The notes beneath the pieces are model-generated. The model ran no database searches and had not been told where the DNA came from. It worked only from the letters and a program-made list of their open reading frames with translations. Below, in pieces: positions 1-12,370 of a DNA stretch of 48,569 bases. The DNA is from a virus. Taxonomy: Duplodnaviria; Heunggongvirae; Uroviricota; Caudoviricetes. Position numbers and translations under genes: made by a program. Location: positions 66,042 to 114,610 of the IMG/VR virus record IMGVR_UViG_3300029305_004380; one strand, 5' to 3'. Positions within the stretch are counted from its first letter, which is position 1. Each line of letters opens with the position of its first letter.

Positions 1-589
1 AATAAATTCGATTATTAACTATTTTCGTAGCATCAACATTGTAATCATAAGCATCATGCCAATTAGCATTGTAATCCGTAGGTTTAACTCCTGATTTTCT
101 AATAGGCGTTATAGGAGTACCTTGTACCAATCGCACTTTATACGCATCTGATGCATAGGTACCGCCTGGAATCGAAATATTATCCAATAATGTATACTTA
201 ATATCTCCATTAGCAGTAGCAAAACTCATAAATTTATTCATATAAATAGGATATGAATTTGCATTAGTTATTGTAAGTTCTACGATAGCACTTCTCCACC
301 AATGCATCTTATATCCTATTAATCTAAATAATTGTCTAGCATTTGATCTCTGTGTAACAGTTCTTGGAAATGCTTCCAACGCTTGTTTATCTTGATTATA
401 AGATAACATATCTCCTAACATAGATATTAATTTTAATAAGACAATTCCAGGATCATTTTCATCTTCAGGAGACCAACTTCTAGTTAATTGAGGAATTGAT
501 TTTAATAATTCATCATATATGCTTTTAAAATCTCTACTAGTATATGAAAGATTAGGGCTTGTCAACATATCATTATTTTCATAATTCAA
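1..589 (-). CDS. Baseplate wedge subunit (T4 gp6 / baseplate J-like), 5' part, runs off the window
   Basis: Not in the ORF track. Hand translation from TTG at 589 (GAAGGGAG RBS at 600-607; alternative ATG at 568) gives ...MLTSPNLSYTSRDFKSIYDELLKSIPQLTRSWSPEDENDPGIVLLKLISMLGDMLSYNQDKQALEAF...ARQLFRLIGYK, a typical gp6-like N-terminus. It follows a gp25-like gene. Confidence 0.75.
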   Translation of the reverse strand, partial: MNYENNDMLTSPNLSYTSRDFKSIYDELLKSIPQLTRSWSPEDENDPGIVLLKLISMLGDMLSYNQDKQALEAFPRTVTQRSNARQLFRLIGYKMHWWRSAIVELTITNANSYPIYMNKFMSFATANGDIKYTLLDNISIPGGTYASDAYKVRLVQGTPITPIRKSGVKPTDYNANWHDAYDYNVDATKIVNNRIY

Positions 590-632
590 GTTTAATCATC
601 TCCCTTCAAATCGTAATTTATATATTTTTATT

Positions 633-1007
633 TTAATCAACAATAGTTTCAAACTCTCCAGTAATTCCAAATTTTTTAATAGTATATGTGATATTAATTT
701 TATAAGCTCCTGTATTCGCATTATCATATATAATTATATCTGATAAATTAACATTGATGGTAGGAACATATGTCTTTATTGTTTCTATGATTATTTCTTT
801 TACTTCACTAAGAGTTTTATTTGTTTTTAATTCAAAAACACTTTTTATTATATTAGTACCATAAGAAGGATCTCCTAATAATTCTCCTTTATTACAATAA
901 AATATACTTTTTAAACTTTGATTTATTGAATCTACATCATAGAGATATTGTGTACTTAATTTACCGTTATTTATATTAAACATTTTTGGAAATGAAATCA
1001 TATTCAT
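633..1007 (-). CDS. Baseplate wedge subunit, gp25/GPW-like (sheath initiator)
   Basis: KGELLGDPSYGTNI...FE motif. Start refined to MNMISF at 1007, with an AAGGTG RBS upstream; the ORF track starts at 1109. Confidence 0.8.
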   Translation of the reverse strand: MNMISFPKMFNINNGKLSTQYLYDVDSINQSLKSIFYCNKGELLGDPSYGTNIIKSVFELKTNKTLSEVKEIIIETIKTYVPTINVNLSDIIIYDNANTGAYKINITYTIKKFGITGEFETIVD

Positions 1008-1030
1008 AATATACAACACCTTCTTTAATC

Positions 1031-1993
1031 TTATAATATAAAATTTGATATCATCACTGCACATTTTCCAACATCTGTAGCCCAGTAAAATTGAATAGAA
1101 CTTGGACAATATGTATCACTCATTTGTGCTAAAGTTTTAAATGGTCCACCTTTACTTTTTATAGTATCACTACCTGGGTCGTAATATTGTTTTAAAAATT
1201 CATCATGAAAAATCTGAAATGCATTTGCAATTCCTCCAGCATTATCAAAATAATGTCCCCAATCTCCTAAACTTGAACTACAACCAAAATTCCAAAGATT
1301 ATATGTAGGAGCACTTTTACTACGCAAATTGCGACCCCAACCGGTTTCAATAGCACATATAGCTAATGAAACTAATACCGAAAGTCCTGTTTGAGTTTGA
1401 ACGTTATATAGTTGTTCTGCTAACTCTGATTTATTAGCTACATTTAGTTTTGAATTTGAATATGTACCAAAATAGCTAGTAGTTAAAATAGTATTTATTT
1501 GTTCTTTTGATAAAAATGCAATAGTTTTAATGTCCGCATGCATAAACTCATAATATGTAAATTTTTTACTTAAATCTACATTAGTATATCCGCCGGGAGG
1601 AACATAACCTATATTAATATTAAAAGAATCAAGATTCATATAGCCCATACCACCGAATGAATCAGCTATATCTAAACCTTTTCCGAGATAACCAATAATA
1701 ACAGGTCTTTTAGCATCTCCATTTTCAAATATTACATGACAAGGTAACACTTCTTTATTAAATAAATCTTTAAGTTGTTTTGATATCCATACAGGTGAAA
1801 CTAAACAATCTTTTACTTTTTCATATACAGCTGTGTTTAATGATTCACCATCTAAATTAACAGGAGATTCTATTATTTCTAAAGAAGGAATATATATTTT
1901 TACAATGTCATCCTTTTTTATAACATATGCTCTATATATTCCTGATAGCGATGAATCATTATTTAATAGATTGTTCATGTAAAAATTTTTCAT
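1031..1993 (-). CDS. Spike/hub paralog A: gp5-like OB-fold plus GH73 glucosaminidase-like domain
   Basis: N-terminal GIYRA...VIFENGDAKRPVIIG matches the gp5/VgrG OB-fold motif. C-terminal AICAIETGWG...YNLWNFG...TYCP...W matches the glucosaminidase family. Confidence 0.75.
   Translation of the reverse strand: MKNFYMNNLLNNDSSLSGIYRAYVIKKDDIVKIYIPSLEIIESPVNLDGESLNTAVYEKVKDCLVSPVWISKQLKDLFNKEVLPCHVIFENGDAKRPVIIGYLGKGLDIADSFGGMGYMNLDSFNINIGYVPPGGYTNVDLSKKFTYYEFMHADIKTIAFLSKEQINTILTTSYFGTYSNSKLNVANKSELAEQLYNVQTQTGLSVLVSLAICAIETGWGRNLRSKSAPTYNLWNFGCSSSLGDWGHYFDNAGGIANAFQIFHDEFLKQYYDPGSDTIKSKGGPFKTLAQMSDTYCPSSIQFYWATDVGKCAVMISNFIL
1701..1732. repeat. 32-bp exact direct repeat, copy 1 (copy 2 at 2855-2886), encoding the IFENGDAKRPV motif
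   Basis: acaggtcttttagcatctccattttcaaatat is identical in both places. A diverged third copy lies near 4176-4205. Confidence 0.9.
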
Positions 1994-2004
1994 AGTTTAA
2001 TTTC
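1933..2004. repeat. 72-bp direct repeat, copy 1 (copy 2 at 3033-3104), covering the start of spike paralogs A and B
   Basis: Offset is exactly 1100 bp with 2 mismatches (1948-1949). Bases 1950-2004 are identical (55 bp). Confidence 0.9.
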
Positions 2005-2016
2005 TCCTTATTATAA

Positions 2017-3093
2017 TCATGCTTTTTGTCTATCTCTTTCTATATCATCCTTTAATAGTCCATCAGATTTTTTTAATTCAGTTTCTGCATTTACTAAATC
2101 ATCATTAGTTATATGATTTGTACTTAATGCTGTTTCTTTATCAACATCATCTATAGTTTCAATTTCAACACTAATTATATTTAAAGTAGAAGTATTGTAT
2201 ATAAACTTTCCTTTAAATTTATGATTATTTAGTGTTTCAGTAAATGTAACTTGTGATTCTGGATTTATAGGACGCGCACATGAACTAAATAAGTATTTAC
2301 TTTTATTTGTTGCAGCAGATTTAACAGTCATACCGTCCATATAATATTTATTTTCATGCACTTTATTATATCCTGAAGCACCACCTGATTGACTATAACC
2401 TTCTATTACTGTAAACGAATCCGTATCTACAGATTTTACAATCCATACGTGGCCTCTACTATTTGCACCACTCATATATTTCATACTCATAATATCTCCT
2501 GGTAAAAACCCGCCGGTGCGAGATCCATTTGCAGTATATGATGTAAATAAATTATTAAAACGAGAAAGAACAGTATTAGCAAAAGTCCATCCATCGCCCA
2601 TACTCATTAATTTACTCTTATCTATTTCAAAAACTTCATTTAAATATCTTTTAGCCATATCTACACATTCTATAGATCCTGATCCATCAAAATCAAATGT
2701 AAGTTCTCCATCAGTAGTATCATTTAACCAATTAATAATATCTTGTGAAACAGTTCCTGACGTAACAAACGATTTAAATCCACTATTATTATCCATATAA
2801 TACCCAATACCGAATACTGCATCCTTGATAGAATCTCCAAAAAATCCTATTATTACAGGTCTTTTAGCATCTCCATTTTCAAATATAACCCATACGTTAT
2901 CTTCATCTTCACAACTTGTAGATAATTTATTCGGTCCACACCAAACAGCTGTTTCTAAATGTACGTCTTCTAAAGTTTTTGCATCACTTAATGCTGGAAT
3001 TCTGACATCTGTTTTATTATATACTTTTGCTTTATATATTCCTGATAATGATGAATCATTATTTAATAGATTGTTCATGTAAAAATTTTTCAT
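2017..3093 (-). CDS. Spike/hub paralog B: gp5-like OB-fold plus CHAP domain
   Basis: First 20 aa identical to paralog A (MKNFYMNNLLNNDSSLSGIY), followed by VWVIFENGDAKRPVIIG. CHAP dyad: ECVD (Cys) and RGHVWIV (His). Confidence 0.78.
   Translation of the reverse strand: MKNFYMNNLLNNDSSLSGIYKAKVYNKTDVRIPALSDAKTLEDVHLETAVWCGPNKLSTSCEDEDNVWVIFENGDAKRPVIIGFFGDSIKDAVFGIGYYMDNNSGFKSFVTSGTVSQDIINWLNDTTDGELTFDFDGSGSIECVDMAKRYLNEVFEIDKSKLMSMGDGWTFANTVLSRFNNLFTSYTANGSRTGGFLPGDIMSMKYMSGANSRGHVWIVKSVDTDSFTVIEGYSQSGGASGYNKVHENKYYMDGMTVKSAATNKSKYLFSSCARPINPESQVTFTETLNNHKFKGKFIYNTSTLNIISVEIETIDDVDKETALSTNHITNDDLVNAETELKKSDGLLKDDIERDRQKA
2855..2886. repeat. 32-bp exact direct repeat, copy 2
   Basis: Identical to 1701-1732. 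Confidence 0.9.
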
Positions 3094-3104
3094 AGTTTAA
3101 TTTC
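3033..3104. repeat. 72-bp direct repeat, copy 2
   Basis: Matches 1933-2004 with 2 mismatches. Confidence 0.9.
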
Positions 3105-3124
3105 CTTTACTATACTCTCAATAA

Positions 3125-4465
3125 TTAGCCTCCTAAATAAGTAAAATGCATAAAATCTTTTAGGTTGTTCCAATTTCCTCCCCATGACCATCCATATTTA
3201 GCAAATATTTCAACTACTTTAGGAGTAACTTTATATTGATTATTACTTGCATACCAGTTATTTATAACGCTTTGATTAGTAGTCATAGGATTATTGGCAG
3301 GATTTACATCAATAGCAGTGCCGTATGAATGATGACTTCTTGCTGTTGAACTTCCTCTAACTAATCTCCAATTATAACCACATGTATCACTACTAATTAA
3401 AAATCCAATATTAAATATTTCTTCAAATATTTTTTCTACATCTCCTGCCAATTTTTTATGAACTGTTATTCTATGTGTAGAAGCTCCAACTGGAGTATTA
3501 CATTTAAATGTTACAGATTTTGTATATTGTGATGAAACAACTGGAGATGTAGGTAATCCTAAACCATCCCATAAAAAAGCGATTTTTTCAGCTTTAGTGC
3601 CTTTATTAGCTACGGTTGTATCGTATTGTTTTTTATCGGTTCCACCTGCTGTTTTAGGTCTAGCAATTCCTGTTAAAACATATGAACCCAAATTCACACC
3701 TGCCAATGTAAGATTTTTTTCATGTAATACGCCTGATAATTCTTTATATTCTCCAGACGAACTATAATATTCTATAATGCTTATAGTATCACCGCTTACA
3801 GATTTTACTATCATTACATGACCTTCAGATCTGCCATTTGGAATATAACCTGATACAATATCACCTGCCATAAGTGTCACTTTGTTATTAGTAACTTCAA
3901 TATAATCAAATTTATCATTATATTTGGTACCTACAGATTTTGAAACATCCTTGCCATCACCTAATGATTCCACATTCGTTATACCAAATACTTCCTTTAA
4001 ATATTTTTTAACTAAATCAACACATTCAATACCATTATCATCTTGATCTACTGCATCAACACCATCTTTTTGAAGAGCTAACCATTCAGCTATGTTATAC
4101 TCTCCACCTAAATTATCATCATTAACAGGTAGCATTACTCCAATTCCACCACTTATTAAGTAATTTGTTACTACTACAGGTCTTTTTGTATCTCCATTTT
4201 CAAACATTACCCATGATACATCTCCATCCGGAATAACGCATGATTGTTTATTAAAAGCACACCACTGAACTACAGGTAATGTATCTTTAAACTCAGTGGT
4301 AGTAAAAGCGTTTGGATCAAAATTTCCAGATTTATCTCTTGAATGATCTATACCTGGAACAAATGCAACAATCTCATCTTTACTATTTTTTAATAATATA
4401 GCTCTGTATATTCCCGCACTATTTGAATCATTATTTAATAAACTATTCATGTAAAAGTCTTTCAT
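3125..4465 (-). CDS. Spike/hub paralog C: gp5-like OB-fold plus CHAP plus M15 zinc peptidase
   Basis: Starts MKDFYMNSLLNNDSNSAGIYRA, then WVMFENGDTKRPVVV. CHAP motifs ECVD and EGHVMIV. M15 motifs SHHSYGTAIDVN, GWSWGGNW and DFMHF. Confidence 0.8.
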   Translation of the reverse strand: MKDFYMNSLLNNDSNSAGIYRAILLKNSKDEIVAFVPGIDHSRDKSGNFDPNAFTTTEFKDTLPVVQWCAFNKQSCVIPDGDVSWVMFENGDTKRPVVVTNYLISGGIGVMLPVNDDNLGGEYNIAEWLALQKDGVDAVDQDDNGIECVDLVKKYLKEVFGITNVESLGDGKDVSKSVGTKYNDKFDYIEVTNNKVTLMAGDIVSGYIPNGRSEGHVMIVKSVSGDTISIIEYYSSSGEYKELSGVLHEKNLTLAGVNLGSYVLTGIARPKTAGGTDKKQYDTTVANKGTKAEKIAFLWDGLGLPTSPVVSSQYTKSVTFKCNTPVGASTHRITVHKKLAGDVEKIFEEIFNIGFLISSDTCGYNWRLVRGSSTARSHHSYGTAIDVNPANNPMTTNQSVINNWYASNNQYKVTPKVVEIFAKYGWSWGGNWNNLKDFMHFTYLGG

Positions 4466-4477
4466 TGTTTTCTCCTA

Positions 4478-7174
4478 TTATTCAAATATAATCCATTCTG
4501 ATTCTCCATTTTCTTTTTTATTCTTATCACTTGTGAACTTATCTGTATTATTGGCAATATCTTTCTCTAAGTGATCAGTAATTTCGCCCCAAGAACTTTT
4601 ATTATATTGATGTAAATCATACTGACCTTTATCTAAACCATCTATCATAATAACATTTATGTCTACAATATTTCCAGCACTATCTTTATGAACATTATAA
4701 ATGACTTCATATTTTTCATTATTTTTCATTATAACAGCGCTCTTAAATTTTGCTCTATCTTTTGAATCTTTATCATAAACATCAAAAGTGCCATCGTTAT
4801 CATCATCTTTATCTTCGCTATCAACTGCACCATCTTTATCCGTATCTTCAAGTAACTTTTTCTTTTTATCTTCTTCAGAAGCTTTATCATATTCCATATT
4901 AAATTTAATATTGTCTACCAAATATGTATTACCTTTTTCTGAAAAATCAGCAGTAACTTTGTCCATTATATCTTTAACTGTAAATGATTTATCATCAACT
5001 GGTTTTATATTTAAATCAGTTATATCATAACGTTTTCCATCAGGTCCAATTATATAATCTACAGCCACTTCGTCTATAGATGCATTATTTGGATCATCAC
5101 CATCGGCCATATATTTAAATGAACCTACTATTCTAAATTTAACACCGTCATATTCATATGTTTCAGAGAATGTATTTCCTAAATTTCCTAAATATGTAGG
5201 CTCAGGATCATATGATATATCAATTTTTGTCAAATTTAAAGTTGTCTCATAACCACTATTATTCATTACATCAAGTTTTTTAGTGATAAAATATGTTCCA
5301 GAACTATGATGTAATTTATTTCCCAATATGGCTTGTACTTTAACTAATCCATTCATAGGAACTTCTGATGGAACACCTTGTATTGTAAGAGTTGCATTGT
5401 ACATATATTGAGTATATGAAGACCATTTAGAATATTCTTGAGCAGTATTTAATGTAGCCCATGTATCAGTATCTTTTACACCTAATCTCGGAGAATTAAC
5501 ACCTTTAATATTTTTTACTTCTCCTGATTCTGTTATTGTAACATATTCATCACCTGTTTTTTGTAAACTGCATGCTAAAGTTAATAACATAGAACCACTA
5601 AAATTAGGTTTCCATACTTTAACAATATGATTAAATCCATTATCAGATTTACCATACCAATTAAAAGTAATATTAGCACTTGCAGGTAATTTATCTTCAT
5701 TACCATTACTTGTATAGGATGAAACAGATGGTACTTTATACACCCAAATTAAATTTTCACATTCTTCATCTCCTATATCATCTACATAAAAATTATATAT
5801 TTGTTTTTGTGTAGGACATATATTTTTATTAGATTTAAAAAAGTCTGCTTCGGTTTGATGAATACAACCTGCTAACACGTCTGTAAATATTTGATATAAA
5901 GTCTTATTATTAACATTGATTAAATCATTATAAGCACCTAAATAATTAGGTCCTGTACCATTTTCATTAACAGCTTGTTTATCAAATCTTATATCAAATA
6001 ATCGTTTATTATTTACAGATATTTTTTCAGAAAATTCAGTTTGAACAAAATTAAATAAAAATTGAAATGGATCCGGATGTTCTTCATCTAACCCCACCAC
6101 ATGTTCTGGTTTTTTTGAAAATTTTGTTTCATTTGCTACATATACATATGCCGTTCCTGTAATAACATATTCTAAAAAATCATGAGCGATAGTATTATCA
6201 TAATCTAAAATCATACCTCTATATGTTTGACTCCTCAATGAAGGTTCATTACCATATCCATACACAAACTCACAATAATTATTCATATTTGAAGTTGTAA
6301 TTAAGTTACCACTTTCATCTGTAAACTTAGTAGCTGCTAATAAAATTTTATCAATTGCATCTATATCCATGAGAGTATTTTCATGAACTCTATATGTTAT
6401 TGTTAAAGTAAATTTATTAGCGACACCTGATCCATTTTGTTCTATTTGAAATTTAGTAAAAATATTCTTATTAAATTCTGGGCTTGTAGTGTCAACTAAT
6501 AATAAACCTTTACATTTGAATACAAGATATAATGAATAAACAGGAATACCATTGTTATATCTGTTAACCAATGTTTGTAACTTATTATTAAAATCTATCA
6601 TTTTAGATTCATTACTAAATGCTTGATATTTAGCTGCTTCAGGTAATTTTGTTTCATCTATGTTGTCTATTTTGTCTTTAATTGATTCTTCAGGTTCTGA
6701 TTTTTCTATTTCATTTTTTTTCGTCAGCAACTGAATATTATTTTGTACATATCCAGATACCCATTTACCCTGAGTTGTTTTATCATCTAAAGTTATAATG
6801 TTATATGATTCACCATCTTTTTTATATTTCAATTTTAAACCAACTGGTGATGGATTGCCACTCATAGATACGTGGTTACTATTAACATTTATAAATACAC
6901 TAAAAGTTGGATGAGATGTAAGTTGGTGTGCACCTACATTTATAGTCCCCTCCAAATTTAGCAAATTATCTTTATATAGATTAAATTCATATGTTGGTAA
7001 AATAGTTTGCATCTGATCTGATAAAGGGTCGTTTTTTGTTAAATATATTTTAGCAATGCCTGCATCATTGCCAGCTGAATCTGTGATATTCAAAGCCATG
7101 AACGGTACGTTTGTAGTATCTAGATTAACACCAAATGTTATTTCTTTTCTAATTTCTCCATTTTCTGTTACCAT
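4478..7174 (-). CDS. Baseplate hub protein (gp27 / phage late control D-like) with N- and C-terminal extensions
   Basis: Hub-like elements ANKFTLTITY, EFVYGY...YRGMILDY and ATLTIQGVP...GTYFITKKLD...YETTLNL. Located between the LysM gene and the spike genes. Confidence 0.65.
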   Translation of the reverse strand: MVTENGEIRKEITFGVNLDTTNVPFMALNITDSAGNDAGIAKIYLTKNDPLSDQMQTILPTYEFNLYKDNLLNLEGTINVGAHQLTSHPTFSVFINVNSNHVSMSGNPSPVGLKLKYKKDGESYNIITLDDKTTQGKWVSGYVQNNIQLLTKKNEIEKSEPEESIKDKIDNIDETKLPEAAKYQAFSNESKMIDFNNKLQTLVNRYNNGIPVYSLYLVFKCKGLLLVDTTSPEFNKNIFTKFQIEQNGSGVANKFTLTITYRVHENTLMDIDAIDKILLAATKFTDESGNLITTSNMNNYCEFVYGYGNEPSLRSQTYRGMILDYDNTIAHDFLEYVITGTAYVYVANETKFSKKPEHVVGLDEEHPDPFQFLFNFVQTEFSEKISVNNKRLFDIRFDKQAVNENGTGPNYLGAYNDLINVNNKTLYQIFTDVLAGCIHQTEADFFKSNKNICPTQKQIYNFYVDDIGDEECENLIWVYKVPSVSSYTSNGNEDKLPASANITFNWYGKSDNGFNHIVKVWKPNFSGSMLLTLACSLQKTGDEYVTITESGEVKNIKGVNSPRLGVKDTDTWATLNTAQEYSKWSSYTQYMYNATLTIQGVPSEVPMNGLVKVQAILGNKLHHSSGTYFITKKLDVMNNSGYETTLNLTKIDISYDPEPTYLGNLGNTFSETYEYDGVKFRIVGSFKYMADGDDPNNASIDEVAVDYIIGPDGKRYDITDLNIKPVDDKSFTVKDIMDKVTADFSEKGNTYLVDNIKFNMEYDKASEEDKKKKLLEDTDKDGAVDSEDKDDDNDGTFDVYDKDSKDRAKFKSAVIMKNNEKYEVIYNVHKDSAGNIVDINVIMIDGLDKGQYDLHQYNKSSWGEITDHLEKDIANNTDKFTSDKNKKENGESEWIIFE

Positions 7175-7186
7175 ATCATTTCTCCA

Positions 7187-7678
7187 TTATATATAATAAT
7201 CTACAATTGATGAAAATGGAGGTATTCTTAATATTCTACCTCTAAACACCTCATTAATAGGATCTATTATCATGTTTGCTTCGGCAATAATCCACCAATA
7301 AGATGCATCTCCATAATATTTTAACGCTAACTTATCTAATCTACCGATATCTGAATTACTAATTGTATGATAAAAATCTCCTGTTGATTTTTTAACTCCA
7401 CTAAATCTATAAAACACATGATAAGATTTACCTAATATTTTTAATGTTTTTACTTTTTTATATCTACTAATATGAAGATAATTAACAGGAGAATATTCAA
7501 CTGGATCTTCATAAATAGTTCTAAAATAATCAGGTTTTCTTTCAGAAGGATAATGATTAATTTTAAAGTGTTTTGAATCTTCATAATTGTATGTTTTATA
7601 AAATTCTTGATCTATTTTACCAGGTGATATTCTTTTTTCTCTTTCTATAGGTTTATGTCTTAATTGCATATATATCAC
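7187..7678 (-). CDS. LysM-like baseplate protein (gp53 / tail X-like)
   Basis: RLDKLALKYYGDASYWWIIAEANMIIDP...GRILRIP. Confidence 0.78.
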   Translation of the reverse strand: MIYMQLRHKPIEREKRISPGKIDQEFYKTYNYEDSKHFKINHYPSERKPDYFRTIYEDPVEYSPVNYLHISRYKKVKTLKILGKSYHVFYRFSGVKKSTGDFYHTISNSDIGRLDKLALKYYGDASYWWIIAEANMIIDPINEVFRGRILRIPPFSSIVDYYI

Positions 7679-9060
7679 CTTCCATTAAATAACCATTTAT
7701 ATAACAAAGCTATCATTGAACCTTTATCAACCTGCATATCAAAAGTAGTCCATGCAGAAGGAGTATTAATAATTCCTCTATCACATAAAGTGTCTAAACA
7801 ATTTCTACCCCAATGATCAGGTACTCTATTAACATATAAAGATGATATTCCACCTGTAGCTTTACACACTAATGCTAATAATAAAGCCTTTGTAAGATTA
7901 TTATTCAATGTAGCAATCCATTGAGCAGGTTCTTGAATAACTCCTTTACCTACTAATGAAATAACATAAGGTTGAGCCCAATGTATTGATGGATTAGTTT
8001 CATATGAAGTCCATGTACCACCTGTAGCTTTATCTATGATTGCTAATGTCATTGCTTTATTAATAGGACTATTTAAATCCACCCATTCTTTTTCAGTTTG
8101 AATTATATTATTATTTTTAAAAAAATCAACATATTGTTTGGCCCAATGATGATTACCTTTATAACAAAATTGTAAATAGTCAAGAGAAACATAAGCATCA
8201 CTTGTATATTTTATTTTTGCCCATTTATTATTTACAGCAATAACTTCAACTTCTTCATTTCTTTTTAATTTGTATTTTATATCATAAGATGTAGAAGGGC
8301 CTTGTCTTACATTCAATGAATCGCAATTAATAACTTTATATATTCCTAAAGACACATTATCTTCTTTCAATCTGGATTTAAATTGAATCCATTCTTGATG
8401 GTTATCTACAAAAGGTTTAGGACAAATTTTCCCAGTAACATCATAATGTCTAATAACATTGTTAGAAGATATATTATATTTATTCATAAGATATTTAACT
8501 AATAATGCACAATTGATTACAGTTTGTTCTTTAAAATAATATGATCCATTTGAATATTTTCTACTACACATTTCTATTCCTATAGAATTAGAATTAGTAC
8601 AAATTTTATAATAACTATGTCCATTGGAACCTTGCAATCCGCCACCACAATGCCAAGAAATATCTTCATCTTTAACACATCTATAAATTACATTTTCATC
8701 AACAAAATAGTGCGCACTCGCACCTCTATACGTAGATTTAAAATAATTTGTATTTCCTTTTGCAGTGTCACCATTATTAGCAGTATAATGAATAACAATA
8801 TATTTAATTGTAGTTCTTGAACTATTGGTAAAATTTTTAGTTGTTAAATTATCATAAATATTAAATGCATTTGCATGACCTACTATTTCTTCTTCATCTG
8901 ATTCATATAATGATTCTTCATCAGAATATGATTCAATACCATCAAAGCCCATTATATCTGGATCTAAACTATTTCTAAATTCAAACCAATCTTTTTCAGT
9001 CATAGTTGATTCATTTTTAGGCACCAATCCTAATTTAAAAGCTTCACTAGACCAAGTCAT
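7675..9060 (-). CDS. N-acetylmuramoyl-L-alanine amidase (Amidase_2) with SH3b and three SLH-like repeats; probable endolysin
   Basis: Amidase motifs IVIHYTAN, SAHYFVD, SIGIEMC and RHYDVTGKICP. SH3b: LNVRQGPSTSY...WAKI. SLH-like: HWAKQYV, HWAQPYV, HWGRNCL. Confidence 0.88.
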   Translation of the reverse strand: MTWSSEAFKLGLVPKNESTMTEKDWFEFRNSLDPDIMGFDGIESYSDEESLYESDEEEIVGHANAFNIYDNLTTKNFTNSSRTTIKYIVIHYTANNGDTAKGNTNYFKSTYRGASAHYFVDENVIYRCVKDEDISWHCGGGLQGSNGHSYYKICTNSNSIGIEMCSRKYSNGSYYFKEQTVINCALLVKYLMNKYNISSNNVIRHYDVTGKICPKPFVDNHQEWIQFKSRLKEDNVSLGIYKVINCDSLNVRQGPSTSYDIKYKLKRNEEVEVIAVNNKWAKIKYTSDAYVSLDYLQFCYKGNHHWAKQYVDFFKNNNIIQTEKEWVDLNSPINKAMTLAIIDKATGGTWTSYETNPSIHWAQPYVISLVGKGVIQEPAQWIATLNNNLTKALLLALVCKATGGISSLYVNRVPDHWGRNCLDTLCDRGIINTPSAWTTFDMQVDKGSMIALLYKWLFNGR

Positions 9061-10309: not shown

Positions 10310-12370
10310 ATGATTATTACAGATAAAAATAAAATTTTAAATTTTTTCTTAGAAATTACAGGAAATAATAAAAATGATATAGAATACATTAAAAATTTAA
10401 TTCAGGTTTATCCGAATGTAATAGATTTAATGTTATCAGATATTACTCCTGATTTAAGTGAAGTAAAATATGTAAAATTAAAAAGATACAATGCTCTAAA
10501 AAATAAAGTAATACAAAATGCAAATATTTTGGATTTAAATAATCAATTATACGATGCATTTCCTATACATATTTTAAAACAAATAAGAAATTATTTTAAA
10601 GAGGAAACATATTTTAATAACAATTATTTTTATAATACTCCAGTATTTTTAAGCGATAAAGAAATAAATAGTTATATTGTTAGTAAAATAAAATCAAAAC
10701 CTTATGAATTTTTATGTAATATATATGGATTTAACTTTAATAAAGTAGATAAATTATTATTAGATGCAAATGAATTAACAACAGAATTGTGGGCAAATGA
10801 ATTAAAAAATTCATTAGAAAGATGTATATCATTTATTCAATGGTATCTTTCAAATTGTATGAATGGTAACACTATAATTAGTTTAGAAACTTTAAAAATA
10901 CAAATGCTTAAAAAATTTAATTTAATAGATTGTATAGATAAATTTAATGAAGCAATATCATATAAAAAGTTCACTTTAATAAATAATGGTATAATGTTAA
11001 CTTCAACTTACCTAGAAGAAAAATATATAAGTGATTTTGTAAAAAAATGTAAATATATTAAACAATCATATAATATAAATGTTTCAAACTATGAATATTT
11101 AGACAATTTTAAATTAACAAGTGATCAACTTAAAACATTAGAATTATTAAACGATAATCAATTAGTACTTTTAAATGGATTTGCAGGAACTGGTAAATCA
11201 AGCAGTGTTAAATCATTAATAAATATGTTAGAAGATAATAATAAAACATATATAATAATGGCTCCTACTGCTAAAGCTGCAAAAACTATATCTGCTTATA
11301 CCGAAAAAGTAGCAAATACTATTCATTATGTCTTATGTTCACATTTTAATGCATTTAATACTCACTATTTTGAAGAATCATATTCAAATGATTCACAAGA
11401 AGATATTTTAGATTATGATGTTATAATAATTGATGAAACTTCAATGATATCTGTAAACTTATTTAGCTCATTATTAAGATTTATCGACCCAAATAGAAGC
11501 AAAGTATTATTAATAGGAGATAGTTATCAATTACCATCAATACAAAGTGGTAATCTTTATCAAGATTTATTAAATATAAGTGATATTCCAAAAGTAACTT
11601 TAGAAAAAATATTTAGATATGAAGAAAATGGATTAGTTACAGTTGCAACAAACATGAGATATGGTAAAAAATATTTAAATCAAGGCGTTAAGATTCAATC
11701 TATAGGTGAATCATATACATTTTACAATTGCGATGATATTATGGAAATGATAAATACAGCCTTAAATAAATATATGGATTTATTAAAAGATAATAACATA
11801 GAAGATATTGCAATTTTAACAGCTAAAAACATTGGAAATTCAGGAACAAATCTTATAAATAATTGCATACAAAAAATAATAAATCCTATAAATGAATTCG
11901 ATGATTATATTTCAATTATGATTGATGGACAAAAAATTAAATTTAAAGAAAATGATTTAGTAATGAATACAAAAAATATGTACGGAATTATAGCTGAAGG
12001 TTCGGAAAGTCAAACCTTAATTGCTAATGGACAAATTGGTAAAATTAAATCAGTGAACATTTTTGATAATTCTTTAAGGGTTAAAATAGATGATGAAATA
12101 TATAATTTTACACAAGAAGATATAAAAAATTTAAGATTAGCATATTGCTTTACAATTCACAAATCTCAAGGTTCTCAGTTTAAACATATTATATACTTAA
12201 CTTCATCTGAAGATATGTTTATGACAAATTCCAATTTAATGTATGTTGCAGTTACCAGAGCTCAAGAAAGTTGTCATCATTTTGGTTCAAGATATGTGAT
12301 AAATTACAAAATTAATGAAAAAGAAAATTTAAAAAGAAATACTACATTATTATATCAATATAATAATTAA
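10310..12370 (+). CDS. recD2: RecD2/Dda-like superfamily 1B helicase
   Basis: Walker A LNGFAGTGKS, then IIIDETSMI, LIGDSYQLPSI, AYCFTIHKSQGSQF and YVAVTRA. AAGGAG RBS. Confidence 0.85.
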   Translation: MIITDKNKILNFFLEITGNNKNDIEYIKNLIQVYPNVIDLMLSDITPDLSEVKYVKLKRYNALKNKVIQNANILDLNNQLYDAFPIHILKQIRNYFKEETYFNNNYFYNTPVFLSDKEINSYIVSKIKSKPYEFLCNIYGFNFNKVDKLLLDANELTTELWANELKNSLERCISFIQWYLSNCMNGNTIISLETLKIQMLKKFNLIDCIDKFNEAISYKKFTLINNGIMLTSTYLEEKYISDFVKKCKYIKQSYNINVSNYEYLDNFKLTSDQLKTLELLNDNQLVLLNGFAGTGKSSSVKSLINMLEDNNKTYIIMAPTAKAAKTISAYTEKVANTIHYVLCSHFNAFNTHYFEESYSNDSQEDILDYDVIIIDETSMISVNLFSSLLRFIDPNRSKVLLIGDSYQLPSIQSGNLYQDLLNISDIPKVTLEKIFRYEENGLVTVATNMRYGKKYLNQGVKIQSIGESYTFYNCDDIMEMINTALNKYMDLLKDNNIEDIAILTAKNIGNSGTNLINNCIQKIINPINEFDDYISIMIDGQKIKFKENDLVMNTKNMYGIIAEGSESQTLIANGQIGKIKSVNIFDNSLRVKIDDEIYNFTQEDIKNLRLAYCFTIHKSQGSQFKHIIYLTSSEDMFMTNSNLMYVAVTRAQESCHHFGSRYVINYKINEKENLKRNTTLLYQYNN

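Follow-up and report, generated by a model that had tools for sequence, protein, structure and literature searches.

It is not yet fully understood how contractile phages cross the thick wall of Gram-positive cells. In the solved cases the enzymes are either on the baseplate hub, as in diffocin and phage 812, or lacking, as in phiCD508. A third solution, in which the enzymes are on the OB anchor of the spike, is probably represented by three paralogous carrier genes, here named A, B and C, of a tailed virus (Caudoviricetes, IMG/VR record IMGVR_UViG_3300029305_004380). All three are on the minus strand between the hub and gp25 genes of the window, that is, the whole stretch of 48,569 nucleotides analysed (positions 66,042 to 114,610 of the record). 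The contig is 114.6 kb long, with a completeness of about 54% (CheckV) and a GC content of 27%, and the window is its right-hand part (48.6 kb).

In T4, the N-terminal OB domain of gp5 docks in the gp27 hub trimer and the wall hydrolase is on the same chain, within the baseplate core module, and the locus described here probably resembles it in these respects. However, T4 has one gene for the homotrimeric gp5, in which a T4-type lysozyme is followed by a triple beta-helix that forms a long needle with gp5.4 at the tip, whereas the window has three paralogous genes, flexible linkers, no beta-helix and a combination of GH73-like, CHAP and M15 enzymes.

Diffocin, a tailocin of C. difficile with the hub-hydrolase CD1368 and the OB spike CD1369, is also contractile and directed against Gram-positive targets. 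It has a short OB spike without a beta-helix, the N-terminal helices of which are enclosed by the hub, and it combines a glycan cutter and a peptide cutter on flexible linkers (PMC11329794). However, both enzymes are on the hub, and the 108-residue spike is homotrimeric and ends in an iron-binding hairpin (PMC11329794), while phiCD508 has no enzymes at all (PMC11948020). Here, the enzymes would be borne by three different spike-type carriers. Phage 812 (Kayvirus), a Gram-positive myophage, has an OB-containing spike which carries an enzyme, a GlpQ-like phosphodiesterase, and, in its core, several three-fold symmetric modules that are wall-active or have a CHAP fold (PMC13433997). In that phage, however, the long spike, a homotrimer, ends in the phosphodiesterase, the CHAP "cleaver" is on the hub, the CHAP fold of the weld is catalytically dead and there are no tandem OB paralogs.

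The specialised VgrG proteins of type VI secretion systems (T6SS) are likewise gp5/gp27-type carriers with C-terminal effectors, some of them peptidoglycan hydrolases, which differ among paralogs; these paralogs can share one trimeric spike and have been drawn as heterotrimers (PMC10433429). They differ in being hub-spike fusions of a bacterial weapon, with a beta-helix and a PAAR tip, and their paralogs are usually scattered in the genome. For A, B and C, co-assembly is a proposal. If the trio does co-assemble, it would break the three-fold symmetry assumed for phage spikes and would be the first phage counterpart of the heterotrimeric VgrG spikes, a homotrimer made into a heterotrimer by duplication. 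The carriers would then be fixed slots for freely exchanged enzyme modules, and a natural plug-in scaffold of about 100 residues plus a linker, by which hydrolases from at least 15 families could each be brought to the tip of the tail, which would be useful for studies of lysin modularity and for the engineering of tailocins and phage tails.

Three hydrolase carriers in the spike slot

The earlier note, made from the sequence without database searches, had described three adjacent open reading frames with a common start (MKxFYMNxLLNNDS..GIY) and a common FENGDxKRPV motif. Both features are present in all three paralogs, and the domain profile scores A, B and C at E-values of 1e-23 to 5e-35; the homology of their N-terminal domains, about 100 residues long, is therefore not due to chance. 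The genes and their domains are as follows (HMM, hidden Markov model; AF2, AlphaFold2).

1031 to 1993, minus strand: paralog A, 320 residues, gamma carrier class, OB carrier with a GH73-like glucosaminidase
1664 to 1993, minus strand: A, N-terminal OB carrier, residues 1-110 (carrier HMM, E 5.4e-35)
1034 to 1609, minus strand: A, GH73-like glucosaminidase, residues 129-320 (Atlas features, structure and motifs; sub-threshold in Pfam)
2017 to 3093, minus strand: paralog B, 358 residues, delta carrier class, OB carrier, CHAP and orphan C-terminal tail
2818 to 3093, minus strand: B, N-terminal OB carrier, residues 1-92 (AF2 model, PDB matches to central-spike OB domains)
2398 to 2670, minus strand: B, CHAP domain, residues 142-232 (Pfam CHAP, 31.4 bits against 26)
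2020 to 2331, minus strand: B, C-terminal tail, residues 255-358, no relatives found
3125 to 4465, minus strand: paralog C, 446 residues, beta carrier class, OB carrier, CHAP and M15_4 peptidase
4145 to 4465, minus strand: C, N-terminal OB carrier, residues 1-107 (carrier HMM, E 1.4e-29; beta clade, support 98/93)
3767 to 4051, minus strand: C, CHAP domain, residues 139-233 (Pfam CHAP, 26.9 bits against 26; phrog_8781 endolysin)
3137 to 3355, minus strand: C, Peptidase_M15_4, residues 371-443 (Pfam, 75.6 bits against 25, E 4.7e-21)

We regard it as probable that A, B and C are virion-borne wall hydrolases tethered to a gp5/VgrG-type OB docking module under the hub trimer. This degree of confidence applies to the carrier-plus-cargo spike and not to a heterotrimer. 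Presence in the virion, docking on the hub, stoichiometry and order of action are what we infer for the three proteins from the evidence that follows.

The shared N-terminal domain

A search of the PDB with the carrier profile gave a sole match, to P1 Gp5, which was not significant (E 0.23-0.92), so that a fold search was needed. An AF2 model of the N-terminal domain of B, made from an alignment of 60 family sequences, is a five-stranded barrel (predicted local distance difference test, pLDDT, 80) with strands at residues 20-25, 29-31, 46-48, 66-71 and 79-84. The top eight Foldseek matches of this carrier model in the PDB are all central-spike or baseplate-core chains (E 2e-4 to 6e-3): PVC 9qgm, P1 Gp5 9vzk_q, AlgoCIS 7aef_q, the contractile injection systems (CIS) of Anabaena and Streptomyces, PVC 6j0m, AFP 6rbk_C and cyanophage A-1(L). 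VIA-align, which is independent of Foldseek, also ranks CIS and phage spikes in all of its top six positions (Z 9.1-7.8), with P1 Gp5 superposed at a root-mean-square deviation of 2.5 over 69 residues with 38% identity. Generic (IF1-type) OB folds reach at most Z 6.8 in this comparison; further spikes, those of VgrG1, Mu, R2 pyocin, phiKZ and phi812 (9euf_B among the matches) and the phiCD508 needle, are found at Z 5.6-6.5.

The sub-threshold Pfam matches of the window proteins fall on the FENGD..RP motif. They remain below the gathering thresholds for both Phage_base_V (PF04717; 17.5 bits against 23.8) and DUF6484 (PF20093; 20.4 bits against 27.6), which weighs against the assignment. Among 129 family members, 23 match DUF6484 (best E 1.4e-13) and eight match Phage_base_V (best E 5.3e-60), at E<=0.001. 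As these matches belong to family members and not to the window proteins, the link to the Pfam OB families is transitive. The proposal that the N-terminal domains are gp5-type OB folds is thus supported at the level of the modelled fold, where they resemble gp5 and VgrG, and falls short at the level of formal Pfam membership.

In every family member the OB domain is followed by a linker of 15-40 residues rich in Gly, Ser and Asn. Neither a beta-helix nor a beta-prism was found after the OB domain of A, B or C by Pfam, by inspection of the linkers or, for the B tail, by an Atlas search; the earlier note had likewise described a Gly-rich linker and seen no beta-helix.

Enzyme cargo of A, B and C

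The C-terminal parts differ between the three paralogs, as had been noted, and the CHAP domains of B and C (PF05257) and the M15 domain of C exceed the Pfam cut-offs. The CHAP motifs ECVD, GHV and IE(G/Y) provide Cys143, His215 and Glu231 in B and Cys148, His216 and Glu232 in C, which we take to be the catalytic triads from what is known of CHAP lysins. The VanY-like M15 domain of C (PF13539) has the motifs HHSYGTAID (378-386) and MHF (439-441); His378, Asp385 (AIDV) and His440 are presumably the zinc ligands, as in the family.

The probable identification of GH73 (PF01832) in A relies on other evidence, since the Pfam score is sub-threshold (14.9 bits against 30.2). Atlas features give 0.96, with PF01832 in 82 of the 100 nearest clusters, and structure gives a template modelling (TM) score of 0.70 to PF01832 clusters. 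The motifs ETGWG at 216 (E216) and YWATD at 303 are present, and the domain is shared with the homologs P0066, P0093 and others. The catalytic motifs of the cargo domains of A, B and C are all intact.

The tail of B, about 100 residues long, has no homologs among 150 family members or the fetched loci. It gave no usable Atlas feature match, and its structure matches are weak and heterogeneous, with nothing resembling a beta-helix. It could be a wall-binding or a partner-binding module.

The hub and the organisation of the operon

The earlier note had placed the three genes between a gp27-like hub and a gp25-like gene. This location stands, the hub being recognised by structure matches and gp25 by Pfam:

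633 to 1007, minus strand: gp25-like sheath initiator/wedge protein (PF04965, GPW_gp25, 31.6 bits against a cut-off of 27.2; phrog_261 and phrog_43)
4478 to 7174, minus strand: baseplate hub, 898 residues, with a gp27/gpD/Mu gp44-like core fold

The hub has no Pfam, PHROG or NCBIfam match. Its core (about residues 190-660) is flanked by an N-terminal extension of about 190 residues and a C-terminal extension of about 240. In Atlas structure searches the core matches Phage_GPD, GpP-like (Mu gp44-like) and VgrG clusters with TM scores of 0.66-0.74 by row. An AF2 model of the core has 56 Foldseek matches in the PDB at E<=1e-3 (best E 1.1e-9), and the 50 of these that were listed are all hub, VgrG or tail-tip proteins, including Mu gp44 (1wru), the diffocin hub-hydrolase (8v3w_H), T4 gp27 (1k28_D), which shares the fold, and the phi812 hub (9euf_E). 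The packing of the hub domains is uncertain because the pLDDT of the model is only 61 and the TM scores are low. On these models the 898-residue protein qualifies as a gp27/gpD/Mu gp44-type baseplate hub. With this fold upstream and gp25 downstream, A, B and C occupy the canonical spike slot.

The gaps in the baseplate operon are 12-31 nucleotides long and each gene has its own Shine-Dalgarno sequence, those of A, B and C being similar. The gp25 start is the ATG at 1007, preceded by a ribosome-binding site and 23 nucleotides beyond the stop codon of A; therefore the two genes do not overlap. A promoter and terminator scan of the operon gaps found no signal above shuffled controls. Given the short gaps and this negative result, the simplest reading is that A, B and C share a transcript with the hub and wedge genes.

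The hub of the window is 33% identical to that of locus L005 over 482 residues. Hub length does not follow the number of carrier genes (679 residues with at least three genes, 644 with two), which is weak evidence against the hub having additional docking domains.

Two further features of the hubs were observed. Residues of about 770-830 in the C-terminal extension (about 4685-4870, minus strand) are Asp-rich, with DxDxDG-like repeats recalling calcium-binding thrombospondin type 3-like motifs. The hubs of relatives range from 523 to 1206 residues and their extensions differ.

A large family with exchangeable cargo

Searched against 1.84 billion representative proteins, the carrier profile recovers 176 clusters at E<=1e-3, all of them uncultured, of which 95 reach E<=1e-10. 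The proteins are 106-574 residues long and in nearly all clusters the carrier domain is at the extreme N-terminus. The members seen in genomic context are all in baseplate modules. The cargo identified by Pfam in the 129 family members comprises NlpC/P60 (33), M23 (26), Phage_lysozyme2 (25), Amidase_5 (19), CHAP (16), ELLD (13), Amidase_2 (9), Glucosaminidase (7), Amidase_3 (5) and M15_4 (3), with a few instances each of 3D, C92, T4 lysozyme, a beta-lactamase-type domain and GDSL lipase, so that at least 15 kinds of wall hydrolase are represented. The conserved carrier with swappable cargo, proposed for the three genes of the window, is therefore a property of a large family.

This family has gone largely unannotated. 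Among 50,697 cultured-phage records, no match was found with window positions 600-7200 by blastn, nor with the OB domains of C, P0009 and P0019 by tblastn; the hub has a single 75-residue match, in an unannotated faecal phage contig. The carrier family has no match in PHROGs, NCBIfam has none for A, B, C or the hub, and scans of IMG/VR with three profiles retrieved only two related contigs. Lacking matches in cultured phages, PHROGs and NCBIfam, and with only sub-threshold Pfam matches in the window proteins, the carrier family represents an annotation gap. What is new is a carrier family of at least 176 clusters, a conserved and ancient three-gene array and the free exchange of cargo.

Number and age of the carrier genes

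A survey of relatives for paralog number and cargo had been proposed in the earlier note. Sixteen related loci were scanned with the carrier HMM, an array being taken as complete when hub and gp25 were both present:

Complete arrays, three carrier genes: the window, L008, L024 and L035
Complete arrays, two carrier genes: L005 and L006
Complete arrays, one carrier gene: L020 and L037
Arrays cut by contig ends, at least three carrier genes: L010, L011, L034 and L036
Arrays cut by contig ends, at least two carrier genes: L019 and L025

In the crown group, three carrier genes lie in the gap between hub and gp25 in all four complete arrays, with varying cargo. The basal relatives have one (L020, L037) or two (L005, L006). 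Three genes are thus not required by the architecture, and the idea that they answer to a three-fold position does not hold as a rule for the family.

In maximum-likelihood trees of the OB domains (38 and 148 rows), the carrier copies do not group by genome, the classes spanning genomes instead. The beta clade (support 98/93) includes C and has exactly one gene from each of nine arrays out of nine. The alpha clade (98/96) has members from L010, L011, L024 and L025, and the gamma clade (89/84) includes A and one gene each from L008, L010, L011, L019, L024 and L034. A smaller delta clade (85/79) is formed by B, P0001 and the L008 gene g1. In the 148-row tree the cluster counts are similar for beta (40), gamma (31) and alpha plus delta-like (about 34). 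Approximately unbiased (AU) tests reject within-genome monophyly for the window (p=0.018), L008 (1.3e-4), L010 (5e-7) and L024 (6e-8), p-values which are optimistic because the clades were partly chosen and named after the first tree. Recent tandem duplication as the origin of A, B and C is rejected by these tests.

Within the beta class alone, the cargo is CHAP plus M15 in the window, Phage_lysozyme2 in L008 and L035, M23 in L010 and NlpC/P60 in L011, L024 and L025. The trees support the view that the three carriers represent ancient, non-interchangeable types, retained while the enzymes are swapped freely by recombination.

The N-terminal peptide

The 17 residues which precede GIY (the N-peptide) are identical in A and B (17/17), and C shares 12 of the 17 with either. 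Outside this peptide, the identity between the OB domains of the window paralogs is only 28-39%. Orthologs across genomes reverse this pattern: their barrels are 47-59% identical and their N-peptides less so. From this comparison, the three N-peptides of the window therefore appear to follow a single partner common to all. The structures of diffocin and phiCD508 show the N-terminal helices of the spike surrounded by the hub and in contact with the tape measure (PMC11329794, PMC11948020); by analogy, the partner of the N-peptides would be this hub/tape-measure site.

The DNA of A and B is identical from 12 nucleotides before the ATG through codon 14 (55 nucleotides; 1993-2005 and 3093-3105 together with the first 14 codons). 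Over the first 22 codons, 19 are identical where 13.8 are expected (rough binomial p about 0.01), and in the motif block 10 are identical where 8.7 are expected. Recent gene conversion was considered as the cause of this near-identity, which is mostly explained by identical residues and strong codon bias; the real signal is therefore the sameness of the N-peptide at the protein level. The 5' leader shared by A and B suggests either a short tract of gene conversion or conservation of the region where translation starts.

Proposed arrangement and action of the spike

It has been possible to outline a mechanism. The hub channel would be plugged by the OB domains together with the conserved N-peptides of 17 residues, at the place taken by gp5, gpV and the spikes of diffocin and phiCD508, and contraction would drive this plug into the wall. 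The tethered GH73 domain of A would cut glycan strands while the CHAP domains of B and C and the M15 domain of C would cut peptide stems or cross-bridges, and the peptidoglycan would be opened ahead of the tube.

As to how three different carriers are accommodated, we tentatively favour a mixed trimer in which one copy each of A, B and C would fill three equivalent sites on the hub. It is favoured because the canonical position offers three equivalent sites and because the three subunits are probably made together; because beta is kept exactly once per array, as if structurally non-equivalent; because the N-peptides appear to share a partner and hub size does not grow with copy number; and because paralogs of homomers commonly retain the ability to cross-assemble. 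The retention of three ancient carrier types, as read from the phylogeny, indirectly backs a heterotrimer, the case for which is somewhat strengthened. The trio found in related phages suggests a mixed three-part spike of a kind undescribed for phages. That such a trimer is obligate across this clade of large, uncultured myophages with hosts of the Gram-positive type, with one beta carrier and two alpha, gamma or delta carriers forming an asymmetric multi-enzyme plug on a C3 hub, is a possibility which we hold more loosely. A prediction of the complex of the OB domains of C, B and A (60-row alignments each) scored 0.19 against a mark of 0.32, without controls, and speaks neither for nor against binding.

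Several observations weigh against this interpretation. A, B and C lack a trimerising element, be it a beta-helix, a beta-prism or a coiled coil, and how a plug of three separate OB domains could hold together is a problem. To our knowledge, the spikes of phages and tailocins are all homotrimers. A phrase search of the literature for heterotrimeric phage spikes found none, only papers on animal viruses and T6SS, most subscription journals being outside its coverage. The phage lineage is uncultured. To these points must be added the Pfam thresholds not reached by the N-terminal domains, the optimism of the AU tests and the basal relatives with one or two carrier genes. Finally, two loci fill two slots with closely related carriers, so that a rule of one carrier of each class is not absolute: in L036 (1156-3528), two sister gamma carriers with Phage_lysozyme2 and M23 cargo follow a truncated third, and in L035 (7995-10768), two delta-like carriers, unresolved in the tree and both with M23, flank the beta carrier.

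Alternatively, each paralog could be homotrimeric, with virions carrying one kind of spike or a random mix of subunits, and the population would then be enzymatically heterogeneous, like that of the T6SS "a la carte" VgrGs. We consider this unlikely. Interchangeable carriers should drift, homogenise or be randomly duplicated and lost, whereas the beta carrier is present once in nine arrays out of nine and the carrier classes predate the divergence of the phages. In addition, the co-transcription of A, B and C, with similar ribosome-binding sites, would bring all the subunits together at assembly. Cargo untied to carrier class is nevertheless what would be expected of interchangeable carriers, and the homotrimeric nature of known spikes, the one-gene and two-gene relatives and the paired carriers of L035 and L036 all fit this alternative.

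It is rather improbable that the three classes occupy three different sites, one of them (probably beta) being a homotrimeric plug and the others three-copy sets elsewhere on the core, with nine carriers per virion. There is a precedent in the phi812 core, which holds several three-copy proteins, namely spike, hub and weld (PMC13433997). The beta class is distinct in sequence at the end of the OB domain and always single, and the window hub has large extensions at both ends. However, the same core motifs are found in all classes and the N-peptides are nearly the same in the window, which suggests one common partner surface; moreover, hub length is independent of copy number and no second OB-docking module was found.

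That A, B and C are instead soluble lysis or auxiliary enzymes housed in the tail module, with an N-terminal domain used, for example, in wall binding, is very improbable: their cargo domains do match endolysin PHROGs and OB folds can bind oligosaccharides, but the N-terminal domain matches the OB domains of spikes better than it does generic OB folds, all relatives keep these genes between hub and gp25, every family member with a visible gene context belongs to a baseplate module, and a separate Amidase_2 gene with an SH3 domain (7675-9060) is available as an endolysin.

Neighbouring genes and related contigs

The remaining genes of the module are the following.

2 to 589, minus strand: gp6/baseplate-J-like wedge protein, N-terminal part, running out of the window edge (phrog_219, baseplate wedge subunit)
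7187 to 7678, minus strand: small baseplate protein, its gene immediately preceding that of the hub (phrog_7145, baseplate wedge subunit, E 4.6e-14; weak gp53 match)
7675 to 9060, minus strand: Amidase_2 and SH3 gene with a C-terminal region of about 160 residues (Pfam)

The order hub, carrier genes, gp25 and gp6-like gene is found in every related locus long enough to include them, and homologues of the gp6-like gene, 926-972 residues long, follow gp25 in all relatives. The phrog_7145-type gene has the same position in L005, L008 and L035, which we take to be equivalent to that of XkdP in PBSX. The window shares with L005 (2099-2953), L008 (1113-2270) and L035 (3847-5031) an Amidase_2 gene located two genes upstream of the hub. 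It may be a fourth tail-associated lysin or an endolysin parked in the tail module.

In L037, a relative with one carrier, an IS605 OrfB/TnpB (Cas12f-like) gene (4602-5852) is found inside the tail/baseplate module, between the tail genes and the hub. The L011 array is on a 7.9 kb contig (DJSP01000018.1) binned with a Bacillales metagenome-assembled genome (UBA6331), and that of L024 is on a 226 kb contig (JAEIGA010000013.1). These two contigs are consistent with a clade of jumbo-size genomes with Bacillota-type hosts. An ExoV/Dda-like helicase gene of the window (10310-12370, plus strand) lies upstream of the Amidase_2 gene, beyond a few small genes and on the opposite strand, and L035 has one in the same arrangement (316-2403, minus strand); the junction between replication and tail modules at the helicase gene is thus conserved in these two members of the lineage.

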